Assembly: GCA_964473825.1 (NCBI GenBank) | Contig: CAYYQL010000013.1 | Span: forward strand, 6,498-66,543 | Reading direction: 5' to 3' | Origin: an uncultured archaeon | GTDB lineage: Archaea; Asgardarchaeota; Thorarchaeia; Thorarchaeales; Thorarchaeaceae | DNA length: 60,046 bases | Part shown: piece after piece, positions 33,064 through 43,144 of the stretch | Position numbering within the stretch: position 1 is the stretch's first letter | Layout: the number at the start of each line of letters is the position of its first letter | The notes under the pieces: generated by a model | What the model was told of the DNA's origin: nothing | The model's input: only the letters and a program-made list of their open reading frames with translations | Database searches by the model: none | Translations under genes and position numbers: made by a program

Positions 33064-34779
33064 TCATCCGACACCGTAGGCGGTCCTAACCTCTCGGACT
33101 ACTAGTCCCACAAGGTCATCGGGAGAACTGATAGCAAAGACAGAGGCACCGGCCTTCTCCAGTTCAACTCTGACCTCATCCTGACGCCCAGTGCTACGCG
33201 CCCCGACATGGAACAAGTAGAGATGGTGCCCCTGTTTGCTTAGTGTTCGGGTCATTTCCATGAGCTTTTCCCAGTTGGCAATCTCTGCGTCAGTAATCAT
33301 AAACGCCAAGACAGGATTATCAGCCTCGGCGCAGATCGACTCGATATCTTCGATAGGTGCAACAGTACCTCCGCCCTGATATGACAGGAGAACGTCTTCA
33401 GCAATTCTTCGATCACGGGTCCAAGTACAGATTCGGGTATCGTCAGAGAAGTTGATCACCGCTATCTGTTGACCTTTCCTCATGATGTAGTCAAGTGCAG
33501 CGAATGCAGCCAGCAAGGCTGAATGATAAGGCCCCGACGCCTTTTTCTTTGAGATAGACCACGTCATAGAACCACTCGAATCAACCACAATCAGCAGATC
33601 CGGCACCTTGATGGACTCCTCCATACCCTGACCCTCGGAGTGCAGCCATCTCCGCGTGGACATATTTGGAATCAGTACCGGAAAGGCCTGCAAGGACTGG
33701 ACAATATCAAGCTCTTCCACAGGGTCACCAAGACGCCAGACCTGCGGAGTCAGAGGTGTCATCCCCGAGCTTCTCTTCTCAAAGACCTCAATCCTGAGAC
33801 CCGTTCTAACATTCGCACGGTACCAGAATCGAAGCCACTTACGTCCCTTGGCGCCGATTCCAGCGAGTCGGAATACAATACGAAGATCATTGAGATTGCC
33901 ATCCCGCTCGACTACCTCAATTGCCAGACGCTCCATCTCGTCCTCTAGCTGAAAAGCATCATCTCGGTCCATACATCTACGAGCCAGATCACCATTTCTG
34001 GCCTCGAGGGGGTTCCCCATCATGATGTCAACATCAACTGGCAGTAGTACTCCATCCTTGCTGTCCTTCTGGCCATCAGCAGGAAGACCGCATCCTGCGA
34101 ATTGATCATCGTCTCGAGGCATCCATTCCGAGAGGATCTTGGCAATCTTCCCAACAGCGAAAGGCCAACGCCGCTCTCTCGGAATATATCTGTCTGTTAC
34201 TCTCACGATTTCTTGTGCAGCAGTGAGAGTTCTCCCATCAATATCAACCTGTGGGGGTACTTCGAAACCCCATTTCTCTTTGTAACAGGCGATTATCAAG
34301 AGCCAGAGAGGAGAGTGCTCTGAAACTCGAACTGCGGCATGAGATATTGATTTCGTAATCCTTCGCCGCGTGAGCATAGGATATCGACGTAGTAGTGTCG
34401 AGTCCACGACCAAGTCAGCAAAGAGGTTACAGGCAAACATTGCGGTTGCATCATTCACATACTTCTTTGCCGCAGCGAACATCATGCCACTTGTTACACC
34501 ATCATAAGGGCACAAGAGATAATGCTCGATTTCGTGGTGACTAAGAGACCTCAGATGCTGTGCCACAGACCCAGATTCCATCTCAGGTGGAAGCCCCGCC
34601 ACATTGAGATAGACGGTCCACGTTGAGGGATCAATGTAGAAATAGCTGCTCACATCTTGGTCATGCTCAATCACTGGCTCAGGGAGTGGCGGATGATAGA
34701 AATCCGCAACTGCTTCAGCCCAAGCACCGCGGGCCAGTTCGACTAGTGTTGTGGGTGTTTCTGCCTTCTTCGAACTCAC
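33064..34779 (-). CDS. VWA-domain protein with N-terminal HExxH metallopeptidase-like domain
   Basis: HHEIEHY; MIDAS DSSGS...GGT...ITDA. Confidence 0.82.
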   Translation of the reverse strand: MSSKKAETPTTLVELARGAWAEAVADFYHPPLPEPVIEHDQDVSSYFYIDPSTWTVYLNVAGLPPEMESGSVAQHLRSLSHHEIEHYLLCPYDGVTSGMMFAAAKKYVNDATAMFACNLFADLVVDSTLLRRYPMLTRRRITKSISHAAVRVSEHSPLWLLIIACYKEKWGFEVPPQVDIDGRTLTAAQEIVRVTDRYIPRERRWPFAVGKIAKILSEWMPRDDDQFAGCGLPADGQKDSKDGVLLPVDVDIMMGNPLEARNGDLARRCMDRDDAFQLEDEMERLAIEVVERDGNLNDLRIVFRLAGIGAKGRKWLRFWYRANVRTGLRIEVFEKRSSGMTPLTPQVWRLGDPVEELDIVQSLQAFPVLIPNMSTRRWLHSEGQGMEESIKVPDLLIVVDSSGSMTWSISKKKASGPYHSALLAAFAALDYIMRKGQQIAVINFSDDTRICTWTRDRRIAEDVLLSYQGGGTVAPIEDIESICAEADNPVLAFMITDAEIANWEKLMEMTRTLSKQGHHLYLFHVGARSTGRQDEVRVELEKAGASVFAISSPDDLVGLVVREVRTAYGVG

Positions 34780-34790
34780 GGCATCACATC

Positions 34791-36497
34791 CTAGTCACCA
34801 AGTGCGTCATGAATCATCTGGCGAAGCTCTACTGCCTTTGAACCGCCCGAGACCTCGAGAAAGACTGATGAATCAGGAGAGTCTCCAGTAACATATACTA
34901 CCAAGGTCAGCTGATTGGTCCTGATTACTTTCCTCCTGGGAGGACTCAGTGTTTCCTTCAGAACAGGAGTCATTTTCGGGTACTGGAGGCTAATCATCGT
35001 CCACAACTCCTGCCAATCTTCAAATGTAAGATTGAACTGCGAAAGAGTCAGGCGGTGAAGGGCATCCGATACTCTGCCGAGCAGCATACTTCTGTTGGGA
35101 AAATCTGCGTCTCTCATCAAGACCTCATGAATCTCGCTCAGGTCTTCGATGTCTTTATCATCAATGCTTTCTTCAATGCGCCGAACCATCTTAACATAGG
35201 CAGACCTTGTCAACTCCTTGGCGAATCGGACGTAGTCCAGTTTCACAAGTAAATCGCTCTTTGACATCTCCCGCAATTCATCGAGGTCTTCTTTCGAAGC
35301 CTTCCCGTGCTTGAACTTCTCAATCAATGCGAAAGCAGGCGCTCTTTTGGCAAAACGAACCGATGCGAGTTCCACAAGATGCTTTGTGAACTGGAATCGA
35401 TCTCCATAGAAGGGTGGCTTTGCAATCTCCTCACGACTGAAGCTGGTCCTGTGCCAGAAGACGAGAGGTGCTATGGATTTCACAATCTCGACGTTCACCT
35501 CACTTGCTCCAAAAAGCCAAGCTGCTGCCTTTGAGTAGCGATTCAAATCTTTGGCTGCTCGAACTGAAAGAGGTATCAGTACTCTGTTGCAGACGCTCTT
35601 GGCCGTATTGAAGTGACAGCCATCACATAACCCAGAATCGATGTTGGGATCTTGGACTTGGCTCTTGTCCACACGAATGCATGCCCCGAACTCTCTCACT
35701 AAAGCCCTCATGAATTCTGATGCCTCAGAGACCACAGGCATCTTGTCCGCAAGATTCCAGATTGTCAAGAGGTCTTCAACTTCAAGGATAGCAGGAACTT
35801 GCCAGAGCTCGTCGTACCCGAAGAGCCTCTCGTCGCGGGAAGCAAGAATCAACTCCAAGTCGTCGACTGAAGGCATTGTTATGGGAACGGCGATACCGAA
35901 CCTGTCCAGGAAAGGAGGTGCCAAGTCGAAAGTTCCAGAATCAGATGGATTCATGGTTGCGTACAGGCAGTACTCCTCACATCTCTTGACCTCATCATAG
36001 TACTTCAGTTCTCCCTCCGCAAGCATAGACAGCAGGATGTTCTGAGCGTGTGGTGTCAGCCGATTGATCTCATCAAGGATCTTCCAGAAGCCTGTCACAA
36101 ACCTTCGCCACACAACAACCTCTTTACCCTCCTTCATGAGAGGGCCAGGTTTGAGTGTGGCCACCATTTTCTCCTCGGTGAGCTGAGGATGGCCGTGAAG
36201 AATACCATCTTCGATCTGATTTATGCTGCTTGCGGTCATCATGCGGCCCAGCAGCTTGATGAGAGTAGTCTTCCCGCCACCATGGCCACCGACAAGTAAC
36301 ATGGCCGACCTAGGCACCAGCGCATTCAACACGCAAGCACCAACAATCAGAGGAAGGCTAGACTTCTTGGTAGAGGTTCCTCCAGATGGATTGTACCGTA
36401 TGGGCAAGTCTTCTGAGTGTACGAAAAGCCCCCTGCTCTCCACCGTTCCGATTACGTTCCAGACCTTCTCTCTGAGAAGCTCATTTCGACTGGCCAT
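34791..36497 (-). CDS. MoxR-family AAA+ ATPase with C-terminal extension
   Basis: GGHGGGKTT, ILDEINR, ATMNP, PFLDRF, SVRA. Confidence 0.88.
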   Translation of the reverse strand: MASRNELLREKVWNVIGTVESRGLFVHSEDLPIRYNPSGGTSTKKSSLPLIVGACVLNALVPRSAMLLVGGHGGGKTTLIKLLGRMMTASSINQIEDGILHGHPQLTEEKMVATLKPGPLMKEGKEVVVWRRFVTGFWKILDEINRLTPHAQNILLSMLAEGELKYYDEVKRCEEYCLYATMNPSDSGTFDLAPPFLDRFGIAVPITMPSVDDLELILASRDERLFGYDELWQVPAILEVEDLLTIWNLADKMPVVSEASEFMRALVREFGACIRVDKSQVQDPNIDSGLCDGCHFNTAKSVCNRVLIPLSVRAAKDLNRYSKAAAWLFGASEVNVEIVKSIAPLVFWHRTSFSREEIAKPPFYGDRFQFTKHLVELASVRFAKRAPAFALIEKFKHGKASKEDLDELREMSKSDLLVKLDYVRFAKELTRSAYVKMVRRIEESIDDKDIEDLSEIHEVLMRDADFPNRSMLLGRVSDALHRLTLSQFNLTFEDWQELWTMISLQYPKMTPVLKETLSPPRRKVIRTNQLTLVVYVTGDSPDSSVFLEVSGGSKAVELRQMIHDALGD

Positions 36498-36675
36498 ATA
36501 GTGTCACTCTCACCGTAATGAGTTTCCTCTCGCGGTTCTGCTTATTGATACTGTGGTCACACCATGAAAGAAACCTTCCGAATCATGTCTCAATAGGCGC
36601 GGAATTGTGTTAGCTCCGAAGATGTAATATGGGAATATTAGGTGAGCATAGAAGATACCAAATGGGGCATCAGAA

Positions 36676-37746
36676 TTGGGCACAGACACTTCCTATTCCG
36701 AACTCATCGAAATAAAGAATCCAGAGGAATTGCCGACCAAACGCCACAGCCAGTACAGTGTCGTAGGACAAGCGGAATTGATGAGGACAGTCATAGACAA
36801 CTACTCGATGATGACGGAACAACTAGATGCGATGGGGCTGCTCTTTGGAGGTAGAATCCTTCTGGTAGGACCCCCAGGGACAGACTTCGATGCATATGCA
36901 TTCCATCTAGCAAAAGAAATCCCCCTGAAACTCGCTACTGTGTCACTCGCCTTGCTATCAGCCGACGTAGGTGAGGCAGCCCAGTCGATTAGGGCAATAT
37001 TCGAGTATGCAAGACGGAATGCGCCAGTGATCCTTCATATCCGACACTTTGAGTCAGCACTCAGACGAAACGATGATGTGATATCAATACTGAGAAGTGA
37101 GCTGGAAGAGACCACATGGGATCACAATGAAACGCTTGTGGTTGCTGCCTTGACCCGCCCCAAGGAACTACCCCCCGAACTTGCACTGCAGTTTGACAGA
37201 ACGATTCTGTTGGAAGAGCCCAATGCCGAAGATCGCACTAGGTTCTTCGAGCAATTCTTCAAAGACAGAGAGGACATCGACTTGGCACTCGTAACAGATG
37301 CGACCAAGGGTTGGAGCTTTGCAGACTTGAAACACCTGGCAGTAGGCTTGCTGCTCAATCCGCCCACAGAAACGGATCATATGACAGCAGAGAAGTTAGA
37401 GGACATTCTAGAGGCCATAGGCATACAACCCGTCGGTAATATCTCAGACTTGAAGCGGCTCTCGCGGACAATGGAAACTCAACCCCGACAAGAGCTTGAC
37501 CGGACCCAGGGTCTGTACCCAGATGATTTCCTAGATCAGCTCTATTTGTTGGCTGTGGGAGAAGAGTATCACAAGACCCAGGGAGTCATCGAGAGTCTGA
37601 ATTCAGACCTGCCTTTATCCAACGAGGATTTGGAAATCCTGAACAGATACCCGTTCCTTCTTCAGGGAGATTCGGAAGAGAGGCTTACACGATTGTTGAG
37701 GGCAAAGAAGACTCACGACCGACTAGCAAGGATAATGGGAAGATAG
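36676..37746 (+). CDS. Catalytically degenerate classic-clade AAA+ protein (pseudo-ATPase)
   Basis: ILLVGPPGTDFD, ARRNAPVILHIRHFES, LTRPKELPPELALQFDR, TKGWSFADL; fold motifs present, catalytic residues absent. Confidence 0.78.
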   Translation: MGTDTSYSELIEIKNPEELPTKRHSQYSVVGQAELMRTVIDNYSMMTEQLDAMGLLFGGRILLVGPPGTDFDAYAFHLAKEIPLKLATVSLALLSADVGEAAQSIRAIFEYARRNAPVILHIRHFESALRRNDDVISILRSELEETTWDHNETLVVAALTRPKELPPELALQFDRTILLEEPNAEDRTRFFEQFFKDREDIDLALVTDATKGWSFADLKHLAVGLLLNPPTETDHMTAEKLEDILEAIGIQPVGNISDLKRLSRTMETQPRQELDRTQGLYPDDFLDQLYLLAVGEEYHKTQGVIESLNSDLPLSNEDLEILNRYPFLLQGDSEERLTRLLRAKKTHDRLARIMGR

Positions 37747-37755
37747 GAGTAGTAT

Positions 37756-40700
37756 GTGATATTGAGTGAGGCTGAGAATCTTCTGGCTAGCGTCAGGGTA
37801 GAGAACTTCCTCTCCTTCTACAAGGGGACTGTGGAGTTCGATCCAGGTCTCACTGTTATCACAGGACCCAACGGGTCAGGAAAGACATCCATCTTTCACG
37901 CGGTGAAGTTCGCACTTGGCTCCAATCAACGAGAGAAGAGATACTCTAAGTGGAGTGATTTCATTCGTTACGGAGCCAGCTCCGCAGAGGTTGAGTTGAC
38001 TGTGGTCTCTGACGGCCAGACACAGAAACTACTCAGAAAGATCGACAGAGATGGAGTACCCCGCGCCTATATTGACGGCAAGAGGGTCAAAGCGGCAGAG
38101 CACAATAATGCCGTCGAAAAACTGGGGATTGACGTTGACAACCCCCTAGTGTTCATGCCTCAAGAGAGAATCAATGCACTTCGTGACATGAATCCCATTG
38201 AGGTAAGAAAGCTCGTTGAGGAGGGAACAGGACTCGGAATTCTAAGAGACCGGATTAGCTCTCAAGAAACACAGGTCGCCCATGACACGAGGCGATTAGA
38301 ATCAGCGGTCTCCGAGGCACAGGTAGTCCAGCAAGAGATTGAACTTCTTCAGAAGGATTTGAAACGTCTGTTCCGAAAGAGAGAGCTTCAAGCCACAGAG
38401 AGAGACCTCAAGTTTGAGCTGAAATGGGCAACGATAGGGGCTCTGGAGAAGAAGCTCTATGATACTCGCTCTGAGATTGAGGAGAGAGAAGAGGGTCTAG
38501 TAGAAGTCATCGCTGAGTCTGCCGAGCTCGAGGCAAAGCGATCTGAAGAGGAGGATAGATCAGAAGCCATCGAAGAGAGAATGGAGAGACTCCAACGCGA
38601 GATAGGAAACATCGATGCCAGAATCAAGGAAGAGGAGAACAGACTACTTAGGCTTGAAGATGACAGCAAGAAAGCCGGTCTCGAAGTACGAAAACTAGAA
38701 CAAGAAATGAAGAACGAAGAGAGGAAGAAAGACAAAATAATAGCCGACCTGAGGAGAGGGTCAAATGCAAAAGAGGAGTATATGGAGAGCCTGAAGCGGC
38801 TCAGAACCGAACTCGAAGGGCTTGAAGGAGAACAAGACGAACTAGAAGACTCCATGGCAATCTTTTCAGAGTGGAACACAAAGAGAGCTGAGGCTTACGG
38901 CACCTACAAAGCCCTCCAAGGACAGCTAGAGAGCAAAGATGTGATGCTAAGGAGCCTCAGAGAACGTCTGCAAGTAGACGAGGCCGAATTGGAAAGTATC
39001 CAGAGTCGATGGGGAAATGTCTGGGACTCGCTGGAGAGCACCGATCAGAAAGACCTGGCCAGGAGGAAGTCGTCACTTGAAAACCTTCTAGCTACTCTCA
39101 ATGAGAAGAGGTTCAGAGAGAATACTCGAGCTGCACAGCTCCAGAAACAGGTCGAAGACCTGAGGATTCAGTTGTCAGAAACCTCAGAACGGATACCCAA
39201 GAATGTGAGAGATCTCAAGGCAACCCTTCAGGTACACGGGCTCACCAATGTCTTCGGACCAGTCATAGAGATGGTAAAAGCGGATAATGCCCTCGGACCA
39301 GCAGTTGAAGCAGTCTTACGAGATGAACTGGCTTTTTCATTTATCGTGACCGATGAAGCTGAATATGCCCTCTTGGAGAGACTGAGGAACCAGATGGACG
39401 CATCCTCCCCCGTCATATTCCTCCAATCAGATGAAGATGGCCATGATGAGGTTTCCCTGAAAGAGGAAGGGGTACGGGGAGAACTCTGGAATCTCGTAGG
39501 CTTAGAGAAACCGTACGAAAGGCTGTTGTCAAGAGCCTTTGGCAGGATAATTGTCACTGAAGAGTCGCGTATGGCATCCCGACTAGCACGCAAGAAAGGA
39601 ATCACTGCCGTTTCTCTGGAGGGGCATCTTGTGGTTCCAGAGAACACGAGGACAATGAGTTATCCTGCCAGAGAACCTTCGGGTCTAGTCTCTACGGCGC
39701 CGCTGCAGTCCCGGCTCGAAGAACTCGAAAAGCAGCGAAAGGAGGCCTCCAAGAGCGTCACAGAGATAATCACTGAACTTGAAAAGGTCACCGAGGAGAG
39801 AGAAGAAGTGGCCGAACTCCTGAGCCATTTCACCAGATGGGGCAGAATCTGGGAAAAGCGCAAGGAACTCATGGAAGGGATCCCAGAGTTGCAGGAGAGG
39901 GTAGTAGCCACAGATGATGAGCTTAAGGAGCTCCAACGGCAGTTTGGAATCGCTGAGAGAGAGCTAAGAGCACTGGATAACACCCAGCCACCCGAGAGAA
40001 GTAGACTCGTCGGTAAGCAACGAGCAATCAGAATGAAACAGAAGAGGTTGCAACAGGATCTCTCACAGGCAGAGGCAAATCTCAACGCTACCGAGAGAGA
40101 TGAGGCTCTGAAGAGACAAGAGATGAAGAGTATTGAAGAAGATATTGCCATGCTAAGCAACCGACTTGAAGAACTACGCGAAGAAATGAAGAGCTCGAAG
40201 TCATCGGCAAGAACGATTCTGGACACAATTGAAACCTTAAAGACAGGCAGGGAAAAAGCGGAAGAAGAGCTTGAAAGTGTCCGTAGTGAGCTTCAGACCT
40301 CACGAGACGTCATCAGAGAGCTTGCTGAACAGCTCGTCGAACTCAATCTGGGTATAAAGAATAGCCAACTCCAAGTCCTACAACTCAAGAGACAAATGAG
40401 CAACATGGAGATTGAGCTAGAAGAAACTCGGAAGGCACTCGAAGGTGAGGAATGTCCGGAGGGTGTAAGGCCTCTAGAAGATGTCCGTCATGAGCTTGTA
40501 CGAGTCAGAGCAATCCTAGATGATTATCAAGACGTATCAGAAGTGCTTGCACAAAATGAATCAAAGCTCAAACAGCGACTAGTAGAACTCACCATGAAGG
40601 TTGAGGAGATACGAGAAGAATTGGAGGAGGCGGAAGAGGCTGTACGGGATATCAGGACACAGTATCACAACGGGATGAACGAAACGTTGAGAGAGGTGGA

Positions 40701-41130
40701 GCACGAAGTAAATGATATTCTGAGTACCGTGAAATTCGCAGCAGAAGTCAGGTTTGAGCTCTCAATGAATGACGGAGAGTACGGAGTAGACTTCAAATCG
40801 AGAATAAAGAGCGAAGAATACAAGGAGATAAGTGCAGGCTCGGGAGGCGAACGTTCGTTGATTGCTATAGGGCTCATCCTGGCTCTTCAGCGTTTCAATC
40901 CTGCACCAGTCTACGCTCTAGATGAGATAGACACATTTCTCGACGCCACTAACACTGAGATGGTCAGCAGGCTACTTCATGATTCATCAAGAAGAAGTCA
41001 GTTCATCATCTTCACACCCGCAAAGAGCACACACCTGCTGAAGCATGCTGACAGACGCATTGGCGTGGTCAGTCCCAAGGGTACTGAACCCTCCGTTATA
41101 ATTGAGAGCCCCAGATTCGAGGGACAATAG
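37756..41130 (+). CDS. smc: SMC ATPase with SMC5/6-like head motifs
   Basis: GPNGSGKT, IDVDNPLVFMPQE, coiled coils with central hinge (GPVIEMV...AVEAVL), GSGGERS, ALDEIDTFLD, QFIIFTP. Confidence 0.92.
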   Translation: MILSEAENLLASVRVENFLSFYKGTVEFDPGLTVITGPNGSGKTSIFHAVKFALGSNQREKRYSKWSDFIRYGASSAEVELTVVSDGQTQKLLRKIDRDGVPRAYIDGKRVKAAEHNNAVEKLGIDVDNPLVFMPQERINALRDMNPIEVRKLVEEGTGLGILRDRISSQETQVAHDTRRLESAVSEAQVVQQEIELLQKDLKRLFRKRELQATERDLKFELKWATIGALEKKLYDTRSEIEEREEGLVEVIAESAELEAKRSEEEDRSEAIEERMERLQREIGNIDARIKEEENRLLRLEDDSKKAGLEVRKLEQEMKNEERKKDKIIADLRRGSNAKEEYMESLKRLRTELEGLEGEQDELEDSMAIFSEWNTKRAEAYGTYKALQGQLESKDVMLRSLRERLQVDEAELESIQSRWGNVWDSLESTDQKDLARRKSSLENLLATLNEKRFRENTRAAQLQKQVEDLRIQLSETSERIPKNVRDLKATLQVHGLTNVFGPVIEMVKADNALGPAVEAVLRDELAFSFIVTDEAEYALLERLRNQMDASSPVIFLQSDEDGHDEVSLKEEGVRGELWNLVGLEKPYERLLSRAFGRIIVTEESRMASRLARKKGITAVSLEGHLVVPENTRTMSYPAREPSGLVSTAPLQSRLEELEKQRKEASKSVTEIITELEKVTEEREEVAELLSHFTRWGRIWEKRKELMEGIPELQERVVATDDELKELQRQFGIAERELRALDNTQPPERSRLVGKQRAIRMKQKRLQQDLSQAEANLNATERDEALKRQEMKSIEEDIAMLSNRLEELREEMKSSKSSARTILDTIETLKTGREKAEEELESVRSELQTSRDVIRELAEQLVELNLGIKNSQLQVLQLKRQMSNMEIELEETRKALEGEECPEGVRPLEDVRHELVRVRAILDDYQDVSEVLAQNESKLKQRLVELTMKVEEIREELEEAEEAVRDIRTQYHNGMNETLREVEHEVNDILSTVKFAAEVRFELSMNDGEYGVDFKSRIKSEEYKEISAGSGGERSLIAIGLILALQRFNPAPVYALDEIDTFLDATNTEMVSRLLHDSSRRSQFIIFTPAKSTHLLKHADRRIGVVSPKGTEPSVIIESPRFEGQ

Positions 41131-41143
41131 TAGGTTGAACGAA

Positions 41144-41779
41144 ATGACCGAGGAAGGTGACCTGGCGAAGGAAGTCTTCGAAATGGCAGAGGCGATCCGT
41201 GCGAGGGGAGAGGATCCATTTGATTTCAAGCTTACAGAATCGTTTCAGCAACTGAGGGCGTCGGCAGCAGAAATAGGTAGTCGAATCGATATTGATGAGA
41301 TGCTCAACGAGATATTGGGCCTCAAAGTCACACGGATTCAAGAACTCGCTCGAATTCTGGCTGCACCCGAAGTCTACGTCAACGCATTGAAGAGAGTGAA
41401 ACCCAGAACCCTGGCAGGGATGATAGAGTACAATCACCCCGTCACTACTAATACGCTGAGTTACATTCCACTCTCAAGAGCCTTTGAGAGAGTACTGCAT
41501 ATGATTGAGGCGCTCTCTGAGGAGCCACCAGAGAATCCCATCCCTCAGATTACGGAGTTACCGGATGACTTCATGTTTCAGTCGGAGGACTCTGTGTTCA
41601 TGAGTGACCTCGAGGATTTTCTCAAGAGTATTCCAAAAGGGAAAGAGATGTCCATCGACGACATTGTCCAACATGAGGACTTCGAGGAGTTCCTCAGAAG
41701 GTTTCTGCTCGTTGTAATCCTGATAGCAAGAGGCAGACTGGTCTATGATCCAGATAGTAAGAGAGTTCTGCGGGAATAG
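41144..41779 (+). CDS. Kleisin (ScpA/Nse4-like)
   Basis: Immediately after smc; EDPFDFKL resembles ScpA DPWDI; C-terminal wHTH RRFLLVVILIARGRL resembles FLALLEL...G. Confidence 0.7.
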   Translation: MTEEGDLAKEVFEMAEAIRARGEDPFDFKLTESFQQLRASAAEIGSRIDIDEMLNEILGLKVTRIQELARILAAPEVYVNALKRVKPRTLAGMIEYNHPVTTNTLSYIPLSRAFERVLHMIEALSEEPPENPIPQITELPDDFMFQSEDSVFMSDLEDFLKSIPKGKEMSIDDIVQHEDFEEFLRRFLLVVILIARGRLVYDPDSKRVLRE

Positions 41780-42207: not shown

Positions 42208-42717
42208 ATGAACGAATACGCAATCTTGATACGAATGCTCACCAGAACCGGCAATCCTATTGGTGCAGGTGTGCCAGATCTTCTCGATGCATTGGCACTG
42301 CCTGAGGATGCTGGCAGACATGTATTATTCAAGAAGCTGGGTTCGCTCCAGAAACAACTGAAGCCTCTCGGTCTGGAGATAAGACATAATCCGATTGACC
42401 ATGTATTCTATCTCGACACTAGTACAAGAACCCAAGACTCACTGGAAGAAACACCGCTTCCCGATAGGCTTGCATCTACTCTGCTGGTAGTCATCACGCT
42501 AGCATATCAGGAAGGGGGCTGGGTGTCCATTGATAGGGTACAGAAATTCAGAAAGAAGAGCCGAAGAGGTGTCCGGGCAGACCTAAGAGAACTTGATTCT
42601 ATGGGATATACAGAGTTCTCTGATGACAACAAGAAGGTCAGGCCCGGGAAGAGAGTGGGATTCGAGATAGACTACGAGTCATTCTTCAGGAACCTCTCTC
42701 AATCAGAACAGACATGA
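42208..42717 (+). CDS. Tandem winged-helix KITE-like protein (ScpB/Nse1/Nse3-like)
   Basis: LQKQLKPLGLEI...VFYL (WH-A) and ASTLLVVITLAY...VRADLRELDSMGY...PGKR (WH-B); located downstream of smc and kleisin. Confidence 0.65.
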   Translation: MNEYAILIRMLTRTGNPIGAGVPDLLDALALPEDAGRHVLFKKLGSLQKQLKPLGLEIRHNPIDHVFYLDTSTRTQDSLEETPLPDRLASTLLVVITLAYQEGGWVSIDRVQKFRKKSRRGVRADLRELDSMGYTEFSDDNKKVRPGKRVGFEIDYESFFRNLSQSEQT

Positions 42718-42784: not shown

Positions 42785-43144
42785 ATGTCACATAGACGCT
42801 CACTCAGGTTTTCAAATGCAACCTGTCCAATTTGCGGAAGCAAGGAAGTGGCGCGTGACAACCAGAAAGGCGATCTCCTCTGCACGAACTGTGGACACAT
42901 CATCATCCGTAAGGATACTCGTGCGGTGGGCAAATTCGAGGTGGCTCAACTCCTGAAGAGAGAGGGAATGCTCTCATTCTCCCAGCTCTCAGAAATGACA
43001 GGCTCCTCAGAGGACAGACTCTATGGAGTACTGCAGAACATGGTCAACATGGAGCTATTGAACGAGATACAGGGCCGGTACTCGTTGACGAAACGCGGAT
43101 CCCGCTGGTACCGTCAACGCTTGGGACAGGAATGGGGCTACTAG
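42785..43144 (+). CDS. TFIIB-type zinc ribbon fused to winged HTH
   Basis: CPICGS...KGDLLCTNCG, then LSFSQLSEMTG...YSLTKRG. Confidence 0.75.
   Translation: MSHRRSLRFSNATCPICGSKEVARDNQKGDLLCTNCGHIIIRKDTRAVGKFEVAQLLKREGMLSFSQLSEMTGSSEDRLYGVLQNMVNMELLNEIQGRYSLTKRGSRWYRQRLGQEWGY

Follow-up and report, generated by a model that had tools for sequence, protein, structure and literature searches.

A degenerate AAA protein encoded beside a second SMC gene in Asgard archaea

Among prokaryotes, no known group is more closely related to eukaryotes than the Asgard archaea. Two SMC-kleisin-kite operons, one related to condensin/cohesin and the other to SMC5/6, have been described from TACK and Asgard archaea, and the SMC5/6-related archaeal complex is given three subunits (van Hooff, Raas, Tromer, Eme; bioRxiv 10.1101/2024.01.07.573240). 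The DNA analyzed here (the window) is a stretch of 60,046 nucleotides from an uncultured archaeon of the family Thorarchaeaceae (GenBank assembly GCA_964473825.1, contig CAYYQL010000013.1, positions 6,498 to 66,543 of the forward strand). Like the SMC5/6-related archaeal operon, it combines a second SMC gene with a kleisin-like and a kite-like gene, apart from the SMC-ScpAB genes of the same genome, and it probably corresponds to that operon. It differs in the gene directly upstream of the SMC gene, termed X below, which encodes a degenerate (pseudo-) AAA protein. As far as the available main text and supplements of the preprint go, an AAA or pseudo-AAA gene is not mentioned (bioRxiv 10.1101/2024.01.07.573240). 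The comparisons presented here make it fairly likely that X serves the second SMC complex in a subset of Asgard archaea as a dedicated accessory factor without catalytic activity.

X occupies positions 36,676–37,746 of the window on the plus strand and encodes 356 amino acids from a TTG start, as defined from the open reading frame (ORF), Pfam matches, and an AlphaFold2 model. The ORF has no internal stops, and the orthologs line up with it from residue 1 (MG[ED]...), which makes the TTG start credible. In an alignment of hidden Markov models (HMMs), the p97 Walker A motif GPPGTGKT corresponds to GPPGTDFD in X (residues 65–72; 36,868–36,891, plus strand); GKT has become DFD (DFE in other orthologs), such that Phe and Asp replace Lys and Thr. 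The p97 Walker B motif IIFIDELD corresponds to ILHIRHFE (residues 119–126; 37,030–37,053, plus strand), in which R123 and H124 stand at the Asp and Glu positions; most orthologs have LYIEKLE, with Glu-Lys at these positions. The sensor-1 and Arg-finger region (AALTRP...ELALQFDR, residues 157–175; 37,144–37,200, plus strand) aligns with AATNRP...ALRRFGRFDR of p97. The sensor-1 Asn is replaced by T160 within AALTRP (residues 157–162; AATTRP in most members), and the Arg-finger segment, represented by LALQFDR (residues 170–176) in X and by ELLS--LFDR in the family, has a two-residue deletion and no Arg. The loss of the Arg fingers and of the catalytic sensor-1/second-region-of-homology pattern is the same in all lineages aligned, except for the sensor-1 Asn of a Helarchaeales member. 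For pore loop 1, MWFGE of p97 D2 aligns with SADVGE in X, which lacks an aromatic residue; this segment is variable and non-aromatic in the orthologs. Based on these motifs, X can probably neither bind or hydrolyze ATP nor thread a substrate.

Downstream of these motifs, the alpha-helical AAA lid (residues 181–232; 37,216–37,371, plus strand) includes TKGWSFADL at residues 210–218. It is followed by a linker with one conserved helix and a variable, low-confidence segment (residues 233–280; 37,372–37,515, plus strand), and then by the C-terminal helical domain that defines the family (YPDDFLDQLYL...RLLRAKKTHDRLARIMGR, residues 281–356; 37,516–37,743, plus strand). The first-pass annotation of this DNA had described a protein with every catalytic element altered on a retained scaffold. 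All of the motifs that it quoted are present, each substitution can be seen in the p97 alignment, and the helical region that it placed after the lid covers residues 233–356. It had also assigned the protein to the Cdc48/PAN/Vps4 type of AAA proteins, in agreement with the Pfam score, profile matches with E-values down to 1e-27, and structural matches given below.

The AAA assignment is based on several comparisons. Pfam family PF00004 matches X with 48.1 bits (cut-off 21.2), and a profile built from 23 orthologs matches p97/Cdc48, NVL, AFG2, NSF, Rix7, VAT, and Msp1 in PDB with E-values of 1e-27 to 1e-18. The NCBIfam models for IteA, CDC48, PAN, FtsH, and CdvC all match below threshold (27–55 bits versus cut-offs of 500–1008). 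An AlphaFold2 model computed from a 70-sequence alignment has a mean predicted local distance difference test (pLDDT) score of 84.9, and its best Foldseek matches in PDB are Rpt subunits, FtsH, p97, PAN, and Vps4 (E-values about 1e-12; template modeling scores about 0.5–0.75). X thus has the alpha/beta plus lid fold of the classical AAA clade, and the match is not due to chance. In the model, the lid is followed by a conserved helix, then by a linker predicted with low confidence (pLDDT under 50 for residues 269–278), and finally by a helical module in which two long helices (residues 283–310 and 333–354) are separated by short ones. This module could not be linked to a described fold. Pfam has no match in the C-terminal 127 residues, and a Foldseek search of PDB with the C-terminal domain alone (model pLDDT 75) returned nothing with an E-value of 0.001 or lower. 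The best Z score in a wide VIA-align search was 5.8, which is in the noise range for helical models. In a feature search of the ESM Atlas, the best score was 0.85 (lead level), a weak cluster containing Vps4_C scored 0.83, and no fold was assigned.

The genomic position of X is highly conserved. In the window, the stop codon of X ends at 37,746 and the GTG start codon of the SMC gene lies at 37,756, with a 9-bp gap and a GGAG sequence that overlaps the stop codon of X; the uninterrupted ORF and the gap had both been reported correctly in the first-pass annotation. All 20 of the loci compared from the Thor order (Thorarchaeales) have the gene order VWA, MoxR, X, and SMC paralog, with the VWA and MoxR genes on the opposite strand. 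The kleisin-like, kite-like, and Zn-ribbon genes then follow wherever the contig extends. In 18 more distant Asgard genomes, which belong to Jordarchaeia, Baldrarchaeia, Lokiarchaeia, and one further family, the SMC paralog is only 22–28% identical. A gene for a protein of 172–471 amino acids lies directly upstream of it in 17 of these 18; in the remaining locus (L049), the SMC gene runs to the contig end, and a homolog lies just upstream of the position that a genome search gives for this SMC gene. The upstream proteins share the C-terminal domain of X, and BLAST aligns them with X mainly, and in most loci only, in this C-terminal part. Full alignments show that they are homologous to X along the whole length.

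A survey of an even sample of 151 Asgard genomes gave a similar picture. The X domain was found in 53 genomes, always as a single copy, and the SMC2-type gene, as we call the SMC paralog, was also found in 53; both were present in 52. X lies upstream of the SMC paralog on the same contig and strand in 50 genomes, with gaps between the matches of 6–181 bp (median 37). The three exceptions among the genomes with X, as well as one SMC fragment without X, are all at contig ends. In Jordarchaeia, the two genes overlap by 4 bp. Moreover, X, SMC2, and the VWA ortholog are all missing together from the two genomes of genus g4 (96% and 88% complete). The linkage to smc proposed initially from a single locus therefore holds among 20 Thor-order relatives, 18 distant genomes, and 50 of the 53 family-bearing genomes, with three contig breaks. 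The association between X and the SMC paralog is exclusive and probably involves translational coupling. The adjacency has outlasted wide divergence of the proteins as well as changes in the flanking genes.

Sequence conservation indicates that X is maintained rather than decaying. More than 180 clusters of orthologs of about 356 amino acids are available, most of them labeled Thorarchaeota. Within the P-loop remnant, G65, G68, D70, and F71 are invariant in 23 Thorarchaeota orthologs with identities down to 39%, and conservation of G68 and D70 reaches at least 90% when the Thor, Loki, Jord, and Baldr lineages are taken together. R187 in the lid is invariant across all lineages. The frequency of the majority residue is 0.85 in the C-terminal 76 residues, compared with 0.53–0.67 elsewhere, and the linker has the lowest value. 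Ratios of nonsynonymous to synonymous substitution rates (dN/dS) were computed against the closest genome or ortholog (dS 0.31). The values are 0.146 for the whole X protein, 0.059 for its lid, 0.065 for its C-terminal domain, and 0.28 for its linker, the highest of the regions; the overall range reported for X is 0.04–0.15. In comparison, dN/dS is 0.093 for the SMC paralog, 0.114 for the kleisin-like gene, and 0.179 for the VWA gene. X is under purifying selection that is concentrated on the lid and the C-terminal module and is comparable to that on the SMC and kleisin-like neighbors. The expectation that dN/dS would be below 1 and that the degenerate motifs would be conserved in orthologs was borne out: the GTDF remnant is invariant in the 23 Thor orthologs, a PGTD[FI] remnant persists in Lokiarchaeia, and only one Helarchaeales protein keeps Walker A. 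The degenerate motifs are thus a maintained state and not a recent decay.

The X family is narrow and was found only in Asgard archaea, namely in the Thor, Loki, Jord, Baldr, Hel, and Sigyn lineages. A profile of the C-terminal domain matched only 108 clusters among 1.84 billion representative proteins, and in near-full-length matches the domain lies at or near the protein C-terminus. Its pattern is Q-L-Y...A...L...PF[IL]L...L..AKK..D, and X scores 121.7 bits against profile A3. The distant members come from sources named Baldrarchaeia, Jordarchaeia, and Lokiarchaeia/"Promethearchaeota", and further ones from Helarchaeales and Sigynarchaeota; their annotation is hypothetical in every case. The orthologs of X itself carry database names such as "ATP-binding protein", "AAA family ATPase", and even "FtsH 4". 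The present annotations of this family are therefore misleading or empty.

The lineages differ greatly in how much of the ATPase subdomain is left. The Lokiarchaeia homologs retain a PGTD[IL] remnant of the P-loop, the FD located just after the missing Arg fingers, and T-x-x-W in the lid. In the Jordarchaeia and Baldrarchaeia homologs, the alpha/beta subdomain is largely deleted, including the strands that form the nucleotide pocket; only the lid (AAA_lid_3, the sole remaining Pfam signal) and the C-terminal domain are kept. At the other extreme, the Helarchaeales protein P0187 (374 amino acids, L058:483-1607, 25% identity to X) has kept the sensor-1 Asn and the Asp of Walker B and is the sole family member found with an intact Walker A (GPLGTGKS). 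In this protein, Pro replaces the catalytic Glu (a D-P Walker B), and the Arg-finger deletion is the same as in X. Its gene lies directly upstream of an SMC gene and overlaps the SMC start. P0187 may represent an intermediate form that binds ATP without hydrolyzing it, and the ancestor of the family was probably an active AAA protein. Because every member examined, P0187 included, lacks Arg fingers and the Glu of Walker B, the simplest order of events is that these were lost first. Hydrolysis and catalysis between subunits would then have disappeared early, with the P-loop following in most lineages. In a quick SMC tree, one clade comprises the Thor sequences together with those of Jordarchaeia and Baldrarchaeia and another comprises the Lokiarchaeia and f24 sequences, and the clades follow the Asgard lineages; the Helarchaeales SMC forms a deep long branch whose position is not settled. 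P0187 and this tree fit the proposed order of loss without proving it. The family also illustrates stepwise evolution of a pseudo-enzyme, from P-loop-intact (Helarchaeales) and fold-intact but dead (Thor) forms to ones that Pfam does not recognize (Lokiarchaeia) or that are largely deleted (Jordarchaeia and Baldrarchaeia), with the lid and C-terminal module constant at every step.

The gene downstream of X (37,756–41,130, plus strand; 1,124 amino acids; GTG start) matches SMC_N and SMC_hinge. The first-pass annotation had named it smc, which is correct for the SMC family; it is not the canonical smc but a divergent second paralog. Its score against TIGR02169 is 282 bits (cut-off 729), whereas the canonical SMC of the same genome scores 918 bits and is followed by ScpA and ScpB genes on a different contig (C2). 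Given this separate SMC-ScpA-ScpB operon, the operon in the window appears to encode a separate complex. The Walker A, Q-loop, signature (SGGERS), and Walker B residues of the SMC paralog are invariant. A Q-x-I-x-F-T-P sequence occupies the usual position of the H-switch. In a profile search of PDB, eukaryotic SMC2/SMC3 (242 bits) ranked above SMC5 (177 bits) and SMC6 (150 bits).

The next gene (41,102–41,779, plus strand; up to 225 amino acids) is termed kleisin-like for its position and for weak matches to the ScpA winged helix. Such a gene lies between the SMC and kite-like genes in 30 loci, recognized by BLAST in 17 and by position in 15 (L041 and L044 by both). The protein has no Pfam or NCBIfam match. 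Against PDB profiles, it matches only the C-terminal winged helix of ScpA, and weakly (4i99_C, E-value 0.1; 5xns_C, E-value 0.34). An hhalign comparison with the ScpA of the same genome gave a probability of 9%, although the two are colinear at the C-terminal winged helix. The longest ORF of this gene overlaps the SMC gene by 29 bp, and the orthologs align only from about residues 15–21; the true start is probably further downstream. The kite-like gene (42,208–42,717, plus strand; 169 amino acids), named for its putative tandem winged helices, follows the SMC and kleisin-like genes in 29 loci, those of Lokiarchaeia and Jordarchaeia included; the protein has only weak matches to winged helix-turn-helix (wHTH) regulators. 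The cluster ends with a gene for a protein with a TFIIB-type Zn-ribbon and a wHTH domain (42,785–43,144, plus strand; 119 amino acids; PF08271, E-value 7.7e-9). This gene is syntenic in 14 Thor-order loci and was not found by BLAST in the Lokiarchaeia, Jordarchaeia, or Baldrarchaeia loci.

Upstream of X and separated from it by a divergent intergenic region of 178 bp (36,498–36,675, as read from the sequence), two genes lie on the minus strand. One encodes a MoxR-type AAA+ ATPase (34,791–36,497) with AAA_5 and AAA_lid_2 matches and a Walker A motif, GGHGGGKT, found by motif scan. The other encodes a VWA protein (33,064–34,779) with a VWA_2 match and, also by motif scan, a metal ion-dependent adhesion site (MIDAS) DSSGS and an N-terminal HEIEH. 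The arrangement of this pair varies. In Jordarchaeia and Baldrarchaeia (L040, L041, L044, and L049), the MoxR and VWA genes are co-directional with X-SMC2, with frames that overlap or nearly abut; in Lokiarchaeia, the orthologs are on other contigs, away from X-SMC2. The phyletic distribution of VWA comes close to that of X and SMC2: strong VWA orthologs are found in the families that have X (f1, f2, f7, f8, f9, and f24), and the VWA ortholog is missing along with X in genus g4 and in genome G011. A few genomes have VWA orthologs without X, namely G146 (f22) and, with weaker ones, members of f20. These patterns suggest that MoxR-VWA and X-SMC form a wider functional module, which is less well supported than the tie of X to the SMC paralog. 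In two Lokiarchaeia genomes, the VWA orthologs (G155:C10:786671-788350 and G042:C16:2112-3746) each contain one in-frame TAG, which could reflect a pseudogene, a sequencing error, or stop-codon recoding.

Among the roles that may be considered for X, that of a dedicated accessory factor of the second SMC complex, composed in this case of the SMC paralog together with the kleisin-like and kite-like proteins, explains these observations most simply. Because the lid and the C-terminal hairpin are conserved in every lineage, the latter after a flexible linker, they probably dock X onto the SMC complex. The docking site could be the arm or neck, the head, or the kleisin or kite. The decaying alpha/beta subdomain would then be no more than a scaffold or a surface for regulation, and X might influence loading, the opening of the ring, or the ATPase cycle of the SMC protein. 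In lineages that have MoxR and VWA in the same operon, X may in addition present the complex to an AAA+/MIDAS remodeler. The first-pass annotation had suggested a pseudo-ATPase kept for a structural or adaptor role; this general idea fits the data, while the proteasome adaptor that it offered as one example has found no support.

Several points weigh against this interpretation. The partnership between X and SMC is derived from gene context and conservation, not from physical interaction. Co-folding of full-length X with the head and proximal arm of the SMC paralog (residues 1–300 and 830–1,124), using per-chain alignments, gave a score of 0.00 against a mark of 0.32, which speaks neither for nor against binding. 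As the genomes are related, the counts of adjacency and co-occurrence are not independent, and inherited synteny may account for part of them. Since the structural searches gave no informative match for the C-terminal domain, docking is proposed from its conservation. The poor conservation of the alpha/beta subdomain across lineages implies that a function requiring the whole AAA fold cannot be general, and the Helarchaeales member may still be able to bind ATP. Finally, the kleisin and kite identities are weak at the sequence level, being assigned from weak matches and position.

A broader version of this idea would include the MoxR-VWA pair, such that X, MoxR, and VWA together form an Asgard-specific module for the loading, unloading, or quality control of an SMC5/6-related ring, as the fourth to sixth components of the holocomplex. 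We regard this as a tentative proposal with perhaps a modest chance of being correct. If it holds, the module would be comparable in function to Nse5/6, RFC-like loaders, or Cdc48-dependent extraction, and multi-subunit regulation of the second SMC complex would be older than eukaryotes.

Alternatively, X may be primarily an adaptor or client mimic for MoxR-VWA. In this scenario, the MIDAS of VWA would grip X or an X-bound complex, and MoxR would drive assembly, loading, or stripping of the SMC ring with ATP. X would then bridge two machines rather than being a constitutive SMC subunit. Consistent with this, the Walker A of MoxR and the DSSGS MIDAS of VWA are intact, the pair is divergently adjacent to X in all 20 Thor-order loci and co-directional with overlapping or abutting frames in Jordarchaeia and Baldrarchaeia, and the families that have VWA and X are shared, with joint absence in g4 and G011. 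However, the pair is unlinked to X-SMC2 in Lokiarchaeia, whereas X is never separated from SMC2, and a few VWA-bearing genomes (G146 and, with weaker orthologs, f20) lack X. This possibility is considered unlikely, although less so than those that follow.

The linkage between X and SMC2 might also be a product of inherited synteny or operon hitch-hiking, with X having a structural but unrelated role. The non-independence of counts from related genomes is compatible with this explanation, and co-folding, the sole direct interaction test, gave no verdict. Yet the adjacency holds in at least five Asgard classes despite changes in the flanks, in which MoxR-VWA may be divergent, co-directional, or absent, and it was kept while SMC diverged to 22–28% identity. 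X is also single-copy, never apart from SMC2 within a contig, and co-lost with it in genus g4, and the way in which stop and start codons overlap or abut points to translational coupling. Such passive inheritance consequently appears improbable.

Slightly more doubtful still is that X acts as an inactive protomer in a hetero-oligomer with an active classical AAA protein, such as Cdc48/VAT or PAN, and thereby targets or regulates the unfolding or extraction of SMC. Mixed rings that contain dead AAA modules have ample precedent, as in Pex1/6 D1 and NSF D2. X is a classical-clade AAA protein whose closest relatives of solved structure are p97/Cdc48, VAT, AFG2, and Rpt/PAN, and several active AAA paralogs are encoded in the genome. 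Nevertheless, X has no Arg fingers with which to activate a neighboring subunit, and the alpha/beta subdomain that provides the ring interface is largely deleted in Jordarchaeia and Baldrarchaeia. The conserved parts are the lid and C-terminal domain and not the ring-forming core, and the comparison of loci found no active AAA gene of the classical type syntenic with X.

It is very improbable that X uses nucleotide in a non-canonical manner, for example as an ATP-binding switch without hydrolysis. In its favor, the strict GTDF remnant in the Thor orthologs suggests a pocket that is still constrained, and the Helarchaeales homolog has GPLGTGKS along with the Asp of Walker B and the Asn of sensor-1. 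Against it, X has Phe and Asp instead of the P-loop Lys and Thr, and Arg instead of the Mg-binding Asp, and the pocket strands are deleted in Jordarchaeia and Baldrarchaeia. A defense-system reading (Lamassu, Wadjet, or Iet) was rejected, because X is single-copy, the SMC clades follow the Asgard lineages, and the neighborhood is conserved; the PADLOC matches are generic P-loop, SMC, or AAA ones.

Taken together, these findings favor the view that X assists the second SMC complex as a dedicated accessory factor with no catalysis of its own. The second SMC operon of Asgard archaea has been proposed as a forerunner of SMC5/6; with a fourth gene that is strictly co-inherited and translationally coupled, the composition expected for what is regarded as a three-subunit complex would have to be revised. 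X and, in several classes, the MoxR-VWA pair are concrete candidates for factors that load or regulate it. Pseudo-AAA proteins and second SMC operons in archaea are each already known. The first-pass annotation knew of no SMC complex with such a subunit, and our search of the literature likewise found none, nor any description of a pseudo-AAA protein as a fixed partner of an SMC operon.

Compared with the classical AAA proteins (Cdc48/p97/VAT, PAN/Rpt, FtsH, Vps4, and Msp1), X shares the alpha/beta plus lid fold and recognizable scaffold motifs. Unlike them, it has no N-domain, protease domain, or MIT domain, and instead has a family-specific C-terminal helical domain of 76 amino acids. The anti-phage AAA protein IetA/IteA is the top NCBIfam and PADLOC match of X (55–56 bits), which reflects general similarity among classical AAA proteins. 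In contrast to IetA/IteA, X scores far below the cut-off of 510, has no IetS partner, and lies in a conserved neighborhood of the housekeeping type rather than in a defense island.

Among the accessory factors of SMC-family ATPases, Nse5/Nse6, Nse2, and the C-terminal helix-loop-helix of Mre11 dock on the arms and heads of SMC or Rad50. X may be analogous to these in being an accessory encoded with, or acting on, an SMC-family ATPase. Its layout, in which a flexible linker joins a globular domain to a small helical module at the C-terminus, is reminiscent of Mre11, an analogy of architecture only. X has no sequence or fold similarity to Nse5/Nse6, Nse2, or Mre11, and the fold searches gave no significant match.

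Non-catalytic AAA+ modules are also known as subunits of other machines, including the delta and delta' subunits of clamp loaders, BchD of Mg-chelatase (a dead AAA+ module fused to VWA), and LAP1/LULL1. X may likewise be an AAA fold retained as a structural or regulatory part after the loss of catalysis. Unlike LAP1, it has no Arg finger to donate, and it belongs to the classical AAA clade rather than to the clamp-loader or MoxR/BchI clades. A parallel in composition is BchI/BchD, in that the Asgard system also pairs an active MoxR/BchI-like AAA+ ATPase, a VWA/MIDAS protein, and a dead AAA module, which in X, unlike in BchD, is not fused to VWA.

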